Virus genome (UHGV): UHGV-2050067
Length of the DNA stretch: 56,618 bases
Reading direction: 5' to 3' (one strand)
From: a virus
The notes beneath the pieces are model-generated. The model had not been told where the DNA came from and did no database searches. It saw only the letters and a program-made list of their open reading frames with translations. The position numbers and the translations under genes were made by a program. Positions 5,559 to 56,618 of the stretch are shown here, one piece after another; position 1 is the stretch's first letter; each line of letters opens with the position of its first letter.

Positions 5559-5891
5559 TCATTCCTCCGGTAACATCACTACATAGACATCACTGAACGC
5601 ATCAAGACGACAAACAAACCCTTTATGCATTAACGCGGCGAAGGCATCATGTACCGTATGAACAGGAAGTTCACACATTTTTGCGATTTCTTGTCGTGAT
5701 ACCATGACGTGACGGCGGTTATCTGCCTTTTCAGCCAGAGCCATTAAGACCAGTTTTTGAATCAGGCTGTTAAGTTTTACTTTCCATACTTCGCTAATCA
5801 TGTTCATGCTCATTGTATTTTCTCCTATGGTTAAAATGAACGCGCGGGCGGGCATCCCATTAGCATTAGATAGCAGTGACTGACCGCTCAA
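5559..5891 (-). CDS. winged-helix HTH protein, first gene of the leftward early operon
   Basis: 110-aa ORF; LIQKLVLMALAEKADNRRHVMVSRQEIAKMCELPVHTVHDAFAALMHKGFV resembles HTH_36 domains of replication proteins; divergent from the CI-like gene. Confidence 0.5.
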   Translation of the reverse strand: MSGQSLLSNANGMPARAFILTIGENTMSMNMISEVWKVKLNSLIQKLVLMALAEKADNRRHVMVSRQEIAKMCELPVHTVHDAFAALMHKGFVCRLDAFSDVYVVMLPEE

Positions 5892-5921: not shown

Positions 5922-5955
5922 TCGCTTCGCAGCGACACCGGATTTTTAAAGAGCT
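5922..5955 (-). promoter_or_regulatory. candidate nut-like site (boxA-like GCTCTTTAAAAA plus short hairpin) on the minus-strand transcript
   Basis: Minus strand reads GCTCTTTAAAAA, then 8 nt, then tcgc-tgcgaa-gcga stem-loop, upstream of the 5891 start. Confidence 0.3.
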
Positions 5956-5994: not shown

Positions 5995-6058
5995 TTGCAT
6001 CATTGCAACTATGGCCTTACCTTGTTTGCAAGTTTACAGAATGGCGTTGACAGGTCAA
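5995..6058. promoter_or_regulatory. immunity switch region: three palindromic operator candidates spaced about 26 bp apart
   Basis: TTGCAtcatTGCAA (5995-6008), cTTGtttgCAAg (6021-6032), TTGACaggTCAA (6047-6058) between divergent early and repressor genes. Confidence 0.45.
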
Positions 6059-6117
6059 GGCTTTAAAAATACGTTTTGTGACTTGTATCAAACTTTTTTA
6101 GGTTATAGGGTAGCGAC

Positions 6118-6765
6118 ATGAAAACAAAATGGTATGACTTAGCAAAACAACTCATGCGGGCGCAGGGCATGAGCCAGGATTCATTGGCTGATCTCATGGG
6201 GATAACCAAAGGTGGCCTTTCGCACTGGCTGAACGGTCGCCGTGAGCCGAATCTTGAAGATATTGCGCGTATCATGCGGGCGCTTGGGCGTCGGCAATTC
6301 ACTGTTACTCATGACGGAATGGTCATTGATGATTCTGTTTCTAACACGTTGCCGGGAGCGCCACCGCGTGATTTAGGCAGTTACCCGGTTGTTGACTGGA
6401 AGGATGTAGCAAACAATATGGAAGGCACACACCGATCAACATTGCCACACGTTGCTACTAGCGTTATTTGTTCGGATGATAGTTATTGGCTGGTTGCTAA
6501 AGGTGAATCAATGAACGCACCGCAAGGGTTGAGCATCCCGGCGGGGACTATGATACTTGTTGACCCGCACGCGCCAGCTATTGACGGAAAACTTGTTATA
6601 GCACAACTGGAGGAAGGGCAGATACCTACGTTTAAACAGTTGATTATTGATGGAGGCCGAAAACTTTTGCGTTCACTAAATCCGTTGTATCCGCCGATCC
6701 CTATGAATCCAGAGTCAAAAATCATTGGCGTGGTTGTTGACGCGAAGATCGTAAACCTGCCATAA
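6118..6765 (+). CDS. CI-like phage repressor (HTH_XRE plus S24 LexA-like peptidase domain)
   Basis: 215-aa ORF; N-terminal HTH (QDSLADLMGITKGGLSHWLNGRREP); C-terminal S24 motifs (VAKGESMNAPQ Ser, IDGKLVIAQL Lys). Confidence 0.85.
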   Translation: MKTKWYDLAKQLMRAQGMSQDSLADLMGITKGGLSHWLNGRREPNLEDIARIMRALGRRQFTVTHDGMVIDDSVSNTLPGAPPRDLGSYPVVDWKDVANNMEGTHRSTLPHVATSVICSDDSYWLVAKGESMNAPQGLSIPAGTMILVDPHAPAIDGKLVIAQLEEGQIPTFKQLIIDGGRKLLRSLNPLYPPIPMNPESKIIGVVVDAKIVNLP

Positions 6766-6888: not shown

Positions 6889-6917
6889 TTGACTCGGTGT
6901 TTTACGGGGCGTATATT
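6889..6917 (+). promoter_or_regulatory. sigma70-like promoter (pL-like) for the rightward operon
   Basis: TTGACT, 17-bp spacer, TATATT; about 45 nt upstream of boxA. Confidence 0.5.
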
Positions 6918-7055: not shown

Positions 7056-7346
7056 ATGAGCGTTACAATCATGTATGGCAAATGTGACAGTAAACTGAAT
7101 GCCAGGGAACGCAGAAAAATAAAAAGAGAAAACGAAAGAAAATCATCACCTGCAATTAATAAAACAGACAATGTGGATAAAGCTATTCGATTTGCAAACG
7201 AGGAAAGGTGCAAACCAAATAGCATTAAAGAACGTCGCAAAGGATCAGTAAAATGGTATATGGAAAATGAAAGCGGCAGCTACTACCACGCAACGCAACC
7301 ACGCCATTTAGGGGAAAAACCCCTGGATAAAGTCCGCTATCATTAA
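7056..7346 (+). CDS. N-like transcription antiterminator candidate (arginine-rich motif)
   Basis: 96-aa basic ORF with N-terminal NARERRKIKRENERK arginine-rich motif; first gene after the promoter and nut-like site. Confidence 0.4.
   Translation: MSVTIMYGKCDSKLNARERRKIKRENERKSSPAINKTDNVDKAIRFANEERCKPNSIKERRKGSVKWYMENESGSYYHATQPRHLGEKPLDKVRYH

Positions 7347-8590: not shown

Positions 8591-8591
<1 letters not shown>
7938..8591 (+). CDS. erf: Erf-family single-strand annealing recombinase
   Basis: 217 aa, GTG start; NSYGGYNYRSAEDILEAVKPLLEG...LIGDRYYIKATA...GATSSYARKYALNGLFCIDDAKD closely parallels P22 Erf as recalled. Confidence 0.85.
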
Positions 8592-9013
<422 letters not shown>

Positions 9014-10562: not shown

Positions 10563-11192
10563 ATGAACATCATGAACGACATCAAAACAGCTTATTCACT
10601 TGGCAGCAATGGCATGTTAATCACTCGCTACACTGAAGATGCAAGTTTTCATGAAGTGGAAACGAAGGATTATCACGAAGTATTAAAAGATATGGAAGCT
10701 GGCGCGTATGACGCTGATTTAAACCTGGCTATGCAGATTGTTGATATTATGATGGACGCGTCGATCCGCGATTATGTGTCTTTAAACGCTGAAGAAAAAA
10801 CTGCCGTAGCTCGTTATGTCTTCTGCCTTGCTTTCGTAAAACGCATGGAAGAAGAATTTGGACGAGTACCAGTGCCGGAAGAAATTGACCCACTGGCGTT
10901 CGGAAGTGCTGTTATTTTCCCGTTAGATGAAAATCATACGGGTAGCGTTGCGCTGTATTCTGTGCGCGGCGTAATGAAAAAAGTATTCGAGGCTAAAGCG
11001 TTACAGAAGTGTATTGATGAAGGGCACAAAGAGGAAGAAGTAAAGGCGATCATGCCATTATTTTACGGCGAAATGGTTGGCAATAATATGCGCGCAAATG
11101 ATTTAGGTGTACAGGCAGCTATAGCTGTGCTTAATGACGCGCGGAAAGACGCACAGCTAGTGCCTGAACCTGAAAAACGCGTACTTCATTAA
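10563..11192 (+). CDS. hypothetical protein (209 aa)
   Basis: ORF track; no motif recognised. Confidence 0.45.
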   Translation: MNIMNDIKTAYSLGSNGMLITRYTEDASFHEVETKDYHEVLKDMEAGAYDADLNLAMQIVDIMMDASIRDYVSLNAEEKTAVARYVFCLAFVKRMEEEFGRVPVPEEIDPLAFGSAVIFPLDENHTGSVALYSVRGVMKKVFEAKALQKCIDEGHKEEEVKAIMPLFYGEMVGNNMRANDLGVQAAIAVLNDARKDAQLVPEPEKRVLH

Positions 11193-11195
11193 CAT

Positions 11196-11211
11196 TGTGA
11201 TTGCGATCACA
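11196..11211. promoter_or_regulatory. perfect TGTGA-N6-TCACA palindrome (CRP-consensus-like) in an intergenic gap
   Basis: tgtgattgcgatcaca; further TGTGA half-sites at about 11231 and 11249; about 80 nt upstream of the 11292 ORF. Confidence 0.4.
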
Positions 11212-11291
11212 TAAATATACATTTTGTTTTGTGATCGCATGTCCGTTTTGTGAACTGAAATCAAAAGGTTTACGGCGCGGAGGAAAACAAG

Positions 11292-11510
11292 ATGGCCCGC
11301 GAATTAATGCTTTATTGCGTTGAGGGTGGCGTAGGCCATGATGCCTATGTCGCAGGGAAAAGCTATCCAGCCGATGAAGTGCTTTCTAATATGCACTTCC
11401 GGGAAAATGAAAGCCGGGTGTCTGTGTGGAAACGGTGCATTGATGGTATTGAAGTTGTAAGTATAGAACGGTATTTAGGCACGTTTGATTACGGTGTTAT
11501 TGAGGCTTAA
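11292..11510 (+). CDS. hypothetical protein (72 aa)
   Basis: ORF track. Confidence 0.4.
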   Translation: MARELMLYCVEGGVGHDAYVAGKSYPADEVLSNMHFRENESRVSVWKRCIDGIEVVSIERYLGTFDYGVIEA

Positions 11511-11803: not shown

Positions 11804-11996
11804 ACACTATAAAGAATGGAAAATTCCAGAATCAGCAACAAAGGCAGCGCCAGGAAATTTTTCTGGCGTTTATTTTTATATGGATGGCAAATGGTATTTC
11901 GGCAGCAGGCCGGATCACTATTATCAGGAAATATGCAAGCCTCACGTATGGGATATTAAAGAGCGCGTGAAAGGCGGTGTGATTGAGGACGTTTAG
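11793..11996 (+). CDS. hypothetical protein (67 aa)
   Basis: ORF track. Confidence 0.35.
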   Translation: MKFKHYKEWKIPESATKAAPGNFSGVYFYMDGKWYFGSRPDHYYQEICKPHVWDIKERVKGGVIEDV

Positions 11997-12470: not shown

Positions 12471-13010
12471 ATGAAAAATGATTTTGGAGGCAGCAGCACA
12501 CCGAAGGAAATTAAAGACCTGTGGCAGACACCTAAACCAGTTTTTAGAGGAATGGACCGCGAGTTTGAATTTGTCGCTGACGTGGCGGCAAACAAGGCAA
12601 ACGCATTAATCCCGCGATATATAACCGAAGAAATGGACACGCTTACTTATCCGTGGGGAGCGGTGGCAATGCCTGGCGAATATGTATGGATGAATCCGCC
12701 ATACTCAAATCCGGGTCCATTTATTGATAAAGCGGCGCTCGAACATCAACGGAATCACATCGGTTGCGTGATGTTGTTGCCCGCTGACATTTCTGTTAGC
12801 TGGTTTATGAACGGCGTGGAGACTGCAAACGAATGCCGATTAATCACGCGCGGGCGGCTGGCGTTTATCAATGCTGCAACAGGTAAACCAGCAAGTGGAA
12901 ACAATAAAGGGAGCTTGTTCTTGATCTGGCATCCACGATGCAGACATGAATGTATTTTCACGCAGATAACACGTAAAGAGCTATATGCAAGAGGTGCAGA
13001 AAATGAATAA
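12471..13010 (+). CDS. DNA N6-adenine methyltransferase (phage Dam-like)
   Basis: 179 aa; NPPY catalytic motif (VWMNPPYSNPGPF). Confidence 0.7.
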   Translation: MKNDFGGSSTPKEIKDLWQTPKPVFRGMDREFEFVADVAANKANALIPRYITEEMDTLTYPWGAVAMPGEYVWMNPPYSNPGPFIDKAALEHQRNHIGCVMLLPADISVSWFMNGVETANECRLITRGRLAFINAATGKPASGNNKGSLFLIWHPRCRHECIFTQITRKELYARGAENE

Positions 13011-14733: not shown

Positions 14734-14892
14734 AGTTTACAAAATGGCGTCATTGCGTGATATGGATCACATAATGGCGCTTTTCGCCTTGTTCTGGTGT
14801 ATCCATTTTGTATACTTCAAGCAAACAAAATGCTCTTTAAAAATCCGGCAGCGCTGAAATGCGTAGAAATCACCTGAAAAGGAGAGAGCATT

Positions 14893-16325: not shown

Positions 16326-16504
16326 AAAACGAAATTAAAGATCTGCAAATAGATATTCAGCGCGATGAGCATGATTTAGAGACTGTGCGACAAATACAGG
16401 CTTTCCACATGCGAGAATTGCTTGCGCTTAAAGAGCTTGAAAGAAAGTTGGTGCAAGCAATATCTGATCGCAAAAGACTTGTTGCGCGTTACGGGGGCAA
16501 GTAA
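16322..16504 (+). CDS. hypothetical protein (60 aa)
   Basis: ORF track. Confidence 0.35.
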   Translation: MKNEIKDLQIDIQRDEHDLETVRQIQAFHMRELLALKELERKLVQAISDRKRLVARYGGK

Positions 16505-17226
16505 TGAATCTGGAATCTATTCTCAAATTCCACTTCCCAAAATCACCGCGTTTATCAGATGAAAGCCGGGGAACGTCCCCGGATGCTCTTAATACTACGG
16601 ATGCACTAACTGCCGCAGGTATGGCGCAATCGCGCGTAGAGCTTGGTTACAGCGCTTTTTTAGGGAAGATGGAACTATCACAAGCCGAAAAGCATAAGGC
16701 CGTAGTTTTGCTTACAGAGCGTTTAAGGGCTATGGCAAAAGATTATGAATACGTTATGGAACTGGACGAGGCCAAACGCAATGATCTCATTATTCTTGTT
16801 GCCGTTTTCGCATTTCGGGATTATTGCCAGAGTGCCGCGACGGAAAAAACTTGTATGGAGTGCGGCGGATATAAATTTACGTTTGACGAATACGGAGAAA
16901 AACACCTTTGCAAAAAATGCAAGGGGCATGGGACAGTTCGCAATCATTGTAAACAATGCAAGGGCCGTGGCGAAGTACCGGATAAAGCAGCCAGTGAAGC
17001 GGCGGAAATGCCAGTGTTCAAAACGTGCCAGCATTGCGGCGGGCGCGGGTACTCGCGTTTCCCTGTAGATCTTGTACGGCGGGCGGTTAATCAGCTTGTT
17101 TTCCCGGTAAGCCGATCAACGTGGTGGAAGAAATACCGCGCTTTCTATGAAGACGCCATTGCTGAATTGTTCAAAGAAGAGGCGCGGGCTGACAACGAAA
17201 TCAAACGAGTAACACGGGGTGAATGA
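16504..17226 (+). CDS. DnaJ-type zinc-finger protein (four CxxCxGxG repeats); possible Q-like regulator
   Basis: 240 aa; CMECGGYK, CKKCKGHG, CKQCKGRG, CQHCGGRG. Confidence 0.5.
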   Translation: MNLESILKFHFPKSPRLSDESRGTSPDALNTTDALTAAGMAQSRVELGYSAFLGKMELSQAEKHKAVVLLTERLRAMAKDYEYVMELDEAKRNDLIILVAVFAFRDYCQSAATEKTCMECGGYKFTFDEYGEKHLCKKCKGHGTVRNHCKQCKGRGEVPDKAASEAAEMPVFKTCQHCGGRGYSRFPVDLVRRAVNQLVFPVSRSTWWKKYRAFYEDAIAELFKEEARADNEIKRVTRGE

Positions 17227-35422: not shown

Positions 35423-35500
35423 TTTCTTATCCTCTTTTGCTTCCTCCGGTCAATCCGGCCTTTTAAGTCCCTTCGCTCTATCCCTTTCCTTTGGCTTCTT

Positions 35501-35570
35501 TATACAAAATGTGTTCACTGAAGTAAATCCATTTTGTATAAAATAGAGGCATAGATCACATTTTGTATGA
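35501..35570. promoter_or_regulatory. inverted TACAAAATG / CATTTTGTA motif cluster in divergent intergenic region (candidate moron promoter/operator)
   Basis: tatacaaaatg (35501-35511), ccattttgtataa (35529-35541), cacattttgtatg (35558-35570); same motif recurs at other junctions. Confidence 0.4.
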
Positions 35571-40901: not shown

Positions 40902-41132
40902 CTATTTGGCAGGTTCGATCCTGTATCCCAAAACGCGGTCATCTTCAGCAAGTAAAAGCGCGTCAGTTAGTGCCTCGCCTTCGTCTTTATACAGAGCTAC
41001 AGTCATTTCCCTGCCGCCTGACAGGAATACCGTCAACCTCCACACCTTATCAGCCATCCCACACCTCCGCGCCATTTTGTTAACCCTGCTTCCTTTTGAG
41101 TACAATATACATATTGTAAAAAGCGCTATCAA
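40902..41132 (-). CDS. hypothetical protein (76 aa or shorter), first gene of moron cassette
   Basis: ORF track; inverted repeat TACAATAT-ac-ATATTGTA lies just upstream at about 41100-41120. Confidence 0.4.
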   Translation of the reverse strand: MIALFTICILYSKGSRVNKMARRCGMADKVWRLTVFLSGGREMTVALYKDEGEALTDALLLAEDDRVLGYRIEPAK

Positions 41133-41185
41133 CCGTTTTGGTATGATTTAGCGTGACAGCGATCACAAAATGACAAGGTGAAAAA

Positions 41186-55259: not shown

Positions 55260-56618
55260 TTAAAAGGATGCGTTATTCTGGTTGTTTCGTTGGTTAAATC
55301 GACTTGTGCGATGATTCATCGACTGAATACATGCAGACGCTGCGCGGGCCTGGTCGCAAGGGAGGATATTGCCGTTGTCGTCAAATCGCTGGTAAACAGT
55401 CCCCGTTTTCCCGTGACGGTTTTTCGAAACAATGATCTCCATATATTCGCGGGCAACAGACTGTTCATCATAGTACCCGTCGCGATAGACCATGATGATC
55501 CGGTCTGCGTCCTGTTCAAGATTCCCGGAATCGCGCAGATCAGAATTATTCGGGCGCTTGTTCGGTCGTTCCTCAACGCGGCGGGATAATTGCGCCAGCG
55601 CCAACACTGGTACGCGCAATTCTTTCGCCATCATCTTCAACGACCATGACAATTGCCCTACAGCGAGATCGTGACGTTCGGCCTTAGCCAGCTTCATTAG
55701 ACCGATGTAGTCAATCATTACCATACCCAGGTTCGGGTGTTCCTGCTTCATGCGTTCCGTTGTTGCGCGTATTTCCTCAACCGTCAACTGCGACGCGTCA
55801 ACGATCCACACCTCAAGATTAGCAAGTGCGCTCATCCCCTGGCCTACATGCGCCCAACCCTCATCATCAAGTTTTACCGGATTGCGCAGGCAGTCAGTTG
55901 ATAAATTACCAGCGCCAGCGATAGCACGCTCAGTCATCTGATCGAGTGACATTTCAAGCGTGAAGAGCAAAACGCCAACCCGCTGTTCTTTACCACCAGG
56001 GTAAGGGCGTTCAGCGGCTGCGCGGGCAATTGTCAGCGCCAACGCAGATTTACCAGACCCAGGGCGTCCGGCGAGAAGTACCAAATCAGTAGCGTTAATG
56101 CCGCCCAACATTTCGTCGAGTGGTTCTATACCTGTTTTGATGTTGTCAGAATTGACACCGCATTCCATGCGCGTGCTTAAAACATCCGTATATTCCTGTA
56201 CCGCATCGCGCAACAGAACCGGAATGATCTTATCTTTCGTTACCTTCAATTTTGAATACCGGGAATCAAAATCTTTCATCGTCTCTTTGACGACCTCAAG
56301 CGTCCCCGTTTCCAGTTTGTAGCGCATATCGTCGATGAGTTCCAACATCTGCCGCCGCTGGTGCTCTTCACGTAGTAGCTGTGCGTATCCTTTCAGGTTT
56401 GCGGCAGAAGGACACGATCGCGCCGTTTGCATCAGAGGAACAAAGTTTTCATTGCCAATCTCATCGCCAACCAATAACGCGTCGATAAGATTCCTGTTTC
56501 TGGCTTGCGCCCGGATAACCTCAAACGCACGTTTGTAAAGCGGGATCGTGAACACTTCAGGATCCAGAGTGGCGAGAACATCTTGCGCGTTAGGAGTGAG
56601 GCCGCCTAACAGCAGCCC
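55260..56618 (-). CDS. replicative DNA helicase (DnaB-like); 5' end lies beyond the window end
   Basis: Walker A LLAGRPGSGKSALALT and DnaB-like C-terminal domain; reading frame stays open upstream of the track start at 56555 to the window edge, matching the longer N-terminus of the left-edge copy. Confidence 0.85.
   Translation of the reverse strand, partial: GLLLGGLTPNAQDVLATLDPEVFTIPLYKRAFEVIRAQARNRNLIDALLVGDEIGNENFVPLMQTARSCPSAANLKGYAQLLREEHQRRQMLELIDDMRYKLETGTLEVVKETMKDFDSRYSKLKVTKDKIIPVLLRDAVQEYTDVLSTRMECGVNSDNIKTGIEPLDEMLGGINATDLVLLAGRPGSGKSALALTIARAAAERPYPGGKEQRVGVLLFTLEMSLDQMTERAIAGAGNLSTDCLRNPVKLDDEGWAHVGQGMSALANLEVWIVDASQLTVEEIRATTERMKQEHPNLGMVMIDYIGLMKLAKAERHDLAVGQLSWSLKMMAKELRVPVLALAQLSRRVEERPNKRPNNSDLRDSGNLEQDADRIIMVYRDGYYDEQSVAREYMEIIVSKNRHGKTGTVYQRFDDNGNILPCDQARAASACIQSMNHRTSRFNQRNNQNNASF

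Follow-up and report, generated by a model that had tools for sequence, protein, structure and literature searches.

The window, by which we mean the whole stretch of DNA analysed (UHGV virus genome UHGV-2050067, 56,618 nucleotides), belongs to a temperate coliphage of the mEpimmI group, and the region round the palindrome considered here shares 84-90% identity with Enterobacteria phage mEp021 and with its relatives mEp515, mEp010, mEp554, mEp013, mEp044 and MagusPhagus. Phage mEp021 and its relatives have been described, under the name 'mEpimmI', as temperate coliphages that are Nus-dependent and non-lambdoid; among isolates from human faeces they are reported to match lambdoid phages in frequency (PMC11893012). 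Positions 1-305 and 56314-56618, at either end of the window, form a 305-bp direct repeat with 91% identity, which suggests that the window probably spans a whole prophage or phage genome together with an att-type or terminal duplication. The palindrome occupies 11196-11211 and belongs to the rightward early operon, where it is flanked by genes homologous to gp25 and gp26 of mEp021, with ipe about 0.9 kb downstream. The landmarks are as follows.

5562-5891, minus strand: gene for a small winged-helix protein of 110 aa, homologue of mEp021 gp14 ('MarR-like'), first gene of the leftward operon
6118-6765: CI-like repressor gene
6889-6917: early promoter PR
7056-7346: N-like antiterminator gene
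10563-11192, plus strand: gp25 homologue, a 209-aa ORF without assigned function, stop codon 11190-11192
11292-11510, plus strand: gp26 homologue (phrog_28996), a 72-aa ORF with its ATG at 11292, first gene downstream of the palindrome
16504-17226: Q-type antiterminator gene (PF03589)
about 21749-22900: lysis cassette

From the gp25 stop codon to the gp26 ATG the gap measures 99 nt, which bears out the intergenic gap of about 100 bp in the early region, upstream of the 11292 ORF, that a sequence-only reading of this DNA had described. In the portion of the mEp021 record available to us no promoter or operator is annotated, and in the mEpimmI papers at our disposal the control elements named are three nut sites and some terminators, with no promoters or operators. 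A metagenome contig (L046, OQVO01002719.1) encodes a gp25 protein 100% identical to that of the window and carries an identical gap, and is probably the same phage or a near-clone. Elsewhere, the SSB homologue (8591-9013) has a run of 11 glutamines ahead of its acidic C-terminal tail.

Positions 11196-11211 read tgtgattgcgatcaca, a perfect 16-bp palindrome (TGTGATTGCGATCACA) of the form TGTGA-N6-TCACA, as had been claimed from the letters, and its likeness to both halves of the CRP consensus is equally sound: when tested against the 22-bp form of that consensus (AAATGTGATCTAGATCACATTT) it matches at 10/10 core positions. The inner flanks T and A also match, extending the form to TGTGAT-N4-ATCACA, and the outer flanks (cat and taa) match in part. 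Such sites are strongly over-represented in the phage. The perfect form TGTGA-N6-TCACA occurs twice in the 56.6-kb window against 0.05 expected, and the core GTGA-N6-TCAC six times against 0.67 expected, with 0/100 shuffles reaching two of the former and 0/100 reaching six of the latter. Two of the six core sites lie within long ORFs and the other four are intergenic, at 11197 (site 1, in the gap), 14757 (site 3), 20073 (site 2) and 41153 (site 4); among these four candidate sites of the host-CRP type, the palindrome in the gap is the best match. The elements of the gap and of the three sister sites are listed below.

11197-11210: conserved core of the palindrome, GTGAT-N4-ATCAC
11212-11228, plus strand: A/T-rich linker of 17 nt, taaatatacattttgtt, free of indels in every relative, diversity 0.093
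11229-11234, plus strand: -35-like hexamer TTGTGA (TTGTTC at two sister modules), which begins the 3' arm of SL1
11243-11256, plus strand: CCGTTTTG followed by the -10-like hexamer TGAACT, homologous to CCATTTTG-TATACT (14803) and CCGTTTTGt-TATATA (20119)
11202-11239, plus strand: RNA hairpin SL1, in which TGCGATCACA (11202-11211) and its exact reverse complement TGTGATCGCA (11230-11239) form the outer stem, enclosing a short inner one
11242-11281, plus strand: RNA hairpin SL2 of 14 pairs, its 5' arm (11242-11256) including the -10-like hexamer and its 3' arm at 11267-11281
14756-14816, plus strand: sister module 3, CGTGATATGGATCACA, 17 nt, TTGTTC, 16 nt, TATACT, then the nutR2 boxA at 14832
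20072-20133, plus strand: sister module 2, TGTGACTAGTATCACA, 17 nt, TTGTTC, 17 nt, TATATA, upstream of genes leading into the lysis cassette
41104-41167, minus strand: site 4, CGTGACAGCGATCACA at 41152-41167, 19 nt upstream of a -35 hexamer

The three plus-strand sites (11196, 14756 and 20072) share one layout, in which the palindrome is followed by 17 nt, a -35-like TTGTnn, a spacer of 16-17 nt ending in CCRTTTTG, and a -10-like TAnAnT; the hexamers in this last position are T(G/A)AACT, TATACT and TATATA. At all three the TTG begins exactly 18 nt after TCAC, and since the frequency of TTG at any one position is 0.018, its recurrence at three of the six core sites would arise by chance with a probability of about 1e-4 by our own arithmetic. 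Site 4 faces leftward, and its promoter-like pair TTGATA-17-TATATT (41132 to 41104) has 10/12 consensus matches. The lac P1 promoter, whose sequence we checked against E. coli genomes and found 100% identical, presents a CRP core (TGTGAGTTAGCTCACT), then exactly 17 nt, then its -35 hexamer, the same gap as at the plus-strand phage sites. This places the phage sites where CRP acts as a class-I activator, with its centre near -60; the centre of the gap site lies at about -59.5 to -60.5 relative to the start predicted from the -10-like hexamer, and that of lac P1 at -61.5. A leftward promoter-like pair near site 2 (20061 to 20032) was rejected, as it is antisense within an ORF and stands at an unsuitable distance from the palindrome. 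As a side observation, the promoter-like TTGTTC-16-TATACT within 14789-14844 lies just upstream of the nutR2 boxA, and its -35 hexamer keeps TTGT among relatives.

At the gap itself the promoter-like element is weak. The pair TTGTGA-16-TGAACT has 7/12 consensus matches in the window and 8/12 in mEp021, whose -10-like hexamer is TAAACT; about a third of relatives have TAAGCC instead. A consensus promoter scan reported nothing at site 1; the promoters at sites 2 and 3 were also below its threshold, and no other sigma-70-like plus-strand match was found between 10256 and 12500. Since the TGAACT of the window lacks the critical A at its second position, the promoter in this copy may be weak or in the course of decay, however tightly CRP binds. 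The regulated internal promoter that had been proposed for this gap is thus upheld in one part and weakened in another: a CRP-type site tied to a promoter-like element is supported by the over-representation, the architecture common to three sites, the lac spacing and the conservation of the sisters, whereas the promoter at the palindrome itself is poor by hexamer match, by the missing A and by the silence of the scan.

Several other candidates for the function of the gap were tried and rejected. A small ORF at 11201-11323 is annotated in only 2/7 phage records (by PHANOTATE, in mEp010 and mEp554) and is absent from the annotation of mEp021, mEp515, mEp013, mEp044 and MagusPhagus; its TTG start at 11201 becomes TTC in 13/33 variants. 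A minus-strand promoter with the palindrome as its spacer operator would have to use the hexamers TATTTA and TGTTAA, which are too poor, and an operator for the CI-like repressor is disfavoured by finding no GTGA-N6-TCAC round PR. The scan of 11190-11291 for terminators returned nothing terminator-like, the UUUU run beginning 7 nt after SL1. Nor is the gap a nut site, as it holds no boxA (GCTCTTTAA), which on transcribed strands occurs only at 5946 (minus), 6962 (plus) and 14832 (plus). Two extra boxA-like copies of this 9-mer, at 11956-11964 and 16428-16436 (minus), lie antisense within coding sequence, making a total of five against 0.57 expected; they have no boxB-like continuation and are therefore probably not nut sites.

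The relatives comprised about 55 loci from IMG/VR and metagenomes, taken with 10 kb on either side; the conservation set for site 1 held 62 sequences, or 39 haplotypes. Distant relatives, sought for covariation, were not found among the GTDB species representatives, the best 120 protein matches were all from E. coli and at least 91% identical, and the metagenome scan contributed only 17 close loci. Across the set, GTGA and TCAC are both intact in 40/62 sequences and one or the other is broken in 22/62. The perfect TGTGA...TCACA form is present in 10/62, and the first T of TGTGA likewise in only 10/62, with CGTGA or AGTGA in most. The -10-like hexamer, with a diversity of 0.243, is the least conserved segment of the element (TAAACT in 21 sequences, TAAGCC in 20, TGAACT in 11, others in 10), its A2 and T6 being kept together in only 22/62. 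By these measures the gap site is the weakest member of the set of four. Its conservation has nonetheless a sharp edge: diversity is 0.48 in the 4 nt just upstream of the palindrome and 0.08 in GTGAT, with the onset exactly at the G of GTGA. It stays at about 0.09 over 11197-11281, the -10-like hexamer excepted, and is 0.136 over the whole gap, the third codon positions of the genes on either side giving 0.20-0.27, and no relative has an indel between the palindrome and the -10-like hexamer. The loops and the spacer are conserved as well, which implies that constraints other than a promoter act on this stretch.

The sister sites show the constraint on the palindromes more clearly. At site 3, GTGAT and TCAC are invariant in 34 haplotypes that carry 13 different centres, and TATACT is kept in 51/52 sequences; the palindrome there also sits at the tip of a hairpin of 15 pairs with TTTT behind it, annotated in mEp021 as terminator TERM_4. 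All 23 haplotypes conserve the left half of site 2, AAAYGTGATCT, identical to the CRP consensus half-site, and the right half drifts (TCACA, TCGCA, CCGCA and others); no RNA hairpin is kept, and the conserved cassette starts at the palindrome, with mosaic flanks upstream. At site 4, across all mEpimmI-type loci (80 loci collected), GTGA and TCAC are invariant and the centre is hypervariable. An RNA stem at site 4 would be only 4 bp long, so that RNA structure cannot explain the conservation there; nor can it account for site 2. Such a pattern, with half-sites held fixed and centres free, is what a dimeric DNA-binding protein would produce, host cAMP-CRP being the simplest candidate.

At the gap site, an RNA layer lies over the same bases. 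Folding of the plus strand scores z = -2.85 for the window and z = -4.09 for mEp021, compared with -1.30 for the minus strand, and RNAalifold on 33 distinct variants returned the same two hairpins, SL1 and SL2, the 3' arm of the latter covering 3/5 bases of the gp26 Shine-Dalgarno GGAGG (11279-11283). In a pairing test on the 10-bp outer stem of SL1 and six core pairs of SL2, 95% of cells were paired (99.5% for the six SL2 core pairs). At pairs that are mostly Watson-Crick, G.U variants occupy 52 cells in nine pairs and become frequent, and A.C variants occupy 7 cells in five pairs and remain rare, an asymmetry that is specific to RNA of the plus strand. The common SL2 variants are all G.U-compatible, and every change in the -10-like hexamer leaves SL2 intact. 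In the L009/L012 lineage, SL1 has one double compensatory change, A-U to G-C (col 24:47); both CRP halves are damaged there (GTGG, TCGC) and the RNA pairings are kept. In the relative L042, SL1 is destroyed and the palindrome persists, TTGT being retained although the rest of the SL1 3' arm has been replaced. The hairpins also dispose of the extra TGTGA half-sites that the sequence-only reading had counted with the palindrome: copies do stand at 11230-11234 and 11249-11253, within 42 nt of it, but they are not CRP half-sites, being explained by the -35-like hexamer and the two RNA stems. The second TGTGA doubles as part of that hexamer and of the 3' arm of SL1, and the third is TGTAA in most relatives. 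As a side observation, GATC is present in both SL1 arms (11205-11208 and 11233-11236) and in the consensus of the sister sites. A gene for an N6-adenine methyltransferase (12471-13010) is carried by the phage itself, and methylation could affect protein binding at GATC-bearing sites.

We consider it about an even chance that the palindrome is a CRP-type class-I candidate site on a weak, possibly decaying internal promoter module with RNA structure overlaid. That module is one of three paralogous plus-strand modules of the rightward operon. The proposed binder would be a dimeric helix-turn-helix protein with CRP specificity, centred some 60 bp ahead of the expected start. The simplest such protein is host cAMP-CRP, as we infer from the identity to consensus, the lac-like geometry and a specificity that is unchanged across all relatives. 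At high cAMP, CRP bound to the palindrome would draw the alpha C-terminal domain of RNA polymerase onto the A/T-rich 17-nt linker and assist initiation at TTGTGA-16-T(G/A)AACT, with a start predicted near 11263, about 7 nt after the hexamer and in the loop of SL2. Read-through RNA from PR would fold SL1 and SL2 and so mask the gp26 ribosome-binding site, whereas a transcript begun near 11263 would be without the SL2 5' arm and should leave that site open; translation of gp26 would then depend on which promoter had made the mRNA. The same DNA would in this way be put to double use: the palindrome would serve as the CRP-type site while its right half and centre supply the 5' arm of SL1, the -35-like hexamer begins the SL1 3' arm, and the -10-like hexamer sits in the 5' arm of SL2. 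Such doubly used DNA is the most economical reading, as neither layer alone explains all of the data; a promoter by itself does not account for the 10 complementary base pairs of SL1, for the restriction of changes in the -10-like hexamer to G.U-compatible ones, or for the conservation of the loops. In lineages with a decayed -10, the window included, the RNA constraint appears to have prevailed. As a control point that senses catabolite status, the gap site would be plausible and fairly ordinary.

Circumstantial support for an internal promoter comes from ipe. Lysogens of mEp021 express Ipe and show an Ipe-dependent haemolytic phenotype (PMC11893012), so that some promoter must escape the repression of PR, and the scan offers no other plus-strand sigma-70-like match nearby.

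The overlaid RNA structure could also be the whole of the matter. The gap would then be a structured intercistronic leader of the PR transcript, in which SL1 and the ribosome-binding-site-masking SL2 set gp26 translation or mRNA processing or stability and the likeness to CRP sites is incidental; the left arm may offer an alternative pairing (11197-11201/11206-11210 versus 11202-11211/11230-11239). The strand-specific fold, the consistent hairpins in the alignment with their high pairing, the compensatory change, the G.U/A.C asymmetry and the SL2-preserving variation of the -10-like hexamer all agree with this, yet we think it unlikely. Covariation is thin, with one pair changed on both sides and shuffle controls exceeded only mildly. 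Rfam 15 gave no match reaching a gathering score in the whole window, and nothing better than E = 0.44 in 11100-11400; the loops are conserved in sequence, not the stems alone. The left arm of the palindrome lies outside the minimum-energy fold and its conservation begins abruptly, which together call for another explanation of that arm. Nor does a purely structural role explain the identical spacing at sites 2 and 3, the conserved half-site of site 2 and 4-bp core of site 4, or the loss of SL1 in L042 with its palindrome and TTGT kept.

A protein other than CRP might instead be the binder, the palindromes being operators of a phage-encoded regulator, for which the winged-helix gp14 homologue (5562-5891, minus strand) is one candidate. 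This protein, 'MarR-like' in mEp021, has winged-helix matches including HTH_Crp_2 (E = 0.009), but these are below the curated Pfam cut-offs (16-18 bits against 25-27). A related half-palindrome, TGTGACTTGTATCAAA (6077-6092), lies across the predicted start of the repressor promoter, the place at which a Cro-like protein would be expected to work, and the half-sites are invariant across phages of one immunity group (PMC11893012). Against this, the sites fit the consensus of an abundant host factor, three of them are placed exactly where CRP acts at lac P1, and a centre near -60 is not a repressor position. Moreover, site 1 decays in some lineages and sites 3 and 4 are fixed, which gives no sign of a co-evolving specificity, and we regard operators of this kind as quite unlikely. 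That the module is a relic with no present function, either a decayed duplicate of the 14756 and 20072 modules or a chance palindrome, is very improbable: half-sites and -10 are degraded in many relatives and the core promoter of the window is poor, but the gap is less diverse than third codon positions and free of indels, and chance is excluded by the site counts against expectation and shuffles.

The gp14 homologue shows weak Pfam matches to TrmB, Rio2_N and HTH_Crp_2 and could be a Cro-like regulator. The half-palindrome TGTGACTTGTATCAAA combines a CRP-like left half, conserved in all relatives, with an FNR-like right half. The repressor promoter there consists of TTGACA (6047-6052), 17 nt and TACGTT, its TTGACA being specific to the window, with TTTTAA or TTTTTA in most relatives.

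To return to the CRP-type module with overlaid RNA structure, class I promoters such as lac P1 (CRP at -61.5) resemble it in the 16-bp TGTGA-N6-TCACA-type core, the 17-nt gap and the A/T-rich linker, and its weak core hexamers are as expected of activator dependence. The phage palindrome fits the CRP consensus better than that of lac P1. Unlike lac P1, however, the phage module has a poorly conserved -10-like hexamer, without A2 in the window, its bases also form RNA stems, and it lies within a long antiterminated operon rather than at its head. The hairpins recall the leader and intercistronic hairpins that mask Shine-Dalgarno sequences, with SL2 pairing 3/5 of the gp26 bases and being kept through G.U-compatible changes; the gap differs in having no Rfam match, and the alternative-start model proposed for it is inferred. 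Late promoters of the P2/186 type carry dyad activator sites (TGT-N12-ACA) near -55 for the Ogr/B family, and offer a parallel, several weak phage promoters each having a conserved dyad ahead of them at a set distance. The spacing and half-sites of mEpimmI phages differ (GTGA-N6-TCAC), and the window phage has a Q-type antiterminator (PF03589). Direct action of cAMP-CRP on a coliphage has a precedent in T1, at the promoters pir, dam and recE (PMC6737242). The two cases are alike in that the host catabolite regulator would address several promoters of a coliphage with temperate behaviour, whereas at T1 CRP represses, as shown experimentally, and the mEpimmI geometry, read from sequence, suggests activation; the phages are unrelated.

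Our analysis adds to the sequence-only reading that the gap site is one of a set of four CRP-type candidate sites in a prevalent, little-studied group of gut coliphages, and that a putative DNA code and a predicted RNA code overlap at it. CRP-type sites at a lac-like distance provide a hypothesis for how ipe, and with it lysogen haemolysis, could be expressed while PR is repressed. They provide another for the third nut site, which would head its own transcript: the near-universal -10 upstream of nutR2 suggests that the third mEpimmI nut site may do so and not only serve read-through from PR. A third concerns whether gut carbon status feeds into lytic gene expression. In its widest form, which we find doubtful and rather improbable, the idea would be that development of mEpimmI phages is wired to host catabolite status by a small regulon with three or four consensus CRP sites, the gap DNA being doubly coded: transcripts initiated with CRP would start within SL2 and free the gp26 ribosome-binding site that PR read-through masks. 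The sites of such a regulon lie ahead of gp26 and the accessory genes including ipe, ahead of the third nut site and the Q antiterminator region, ahead of the genes leading into the lysis cassette, and in the tail region. If the sites are inert, the gap is merely a well-conserved, structured intercistronic spacer.

A further motif recurs across the genome. The linker of the gap site includes ATACATTTTGT, an inverted copy of GTWTACAAAATGG, and this motif (inverted, CCATTTTGTAWAC) has 20 matches in the window at no more than two mismatches, against 3.1 expected, at 379, 6032, 6875, 14735, 14803 (minus), 20090, 35500, 35529 (minus), 39080 (minus), 39474 (minus), 41072 (minus) and other positions. 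The best matches, with 0-1 mismatch, lie mostly within or at the edge of intergenic regions. In one orientation GTWTACAAAATGG abuts the -35 hexamer, at PR, the repressor promoter, 20090, 35500, 35529 and 39474; inverted, it overlaps the -10-like hexamers at 11243, 14803, 20119 and 41133. From this placement the motif could be an UP-like element combined with an extended -10, or an operator for some protein. In a late-region intergenic gap (35490-35570), three copies of TACAAAATG form back-to-back promoter-like pairs, TTCACT-17-TATAAA on the plus strand and TTTACT-17-TATAAA on the minus strand.
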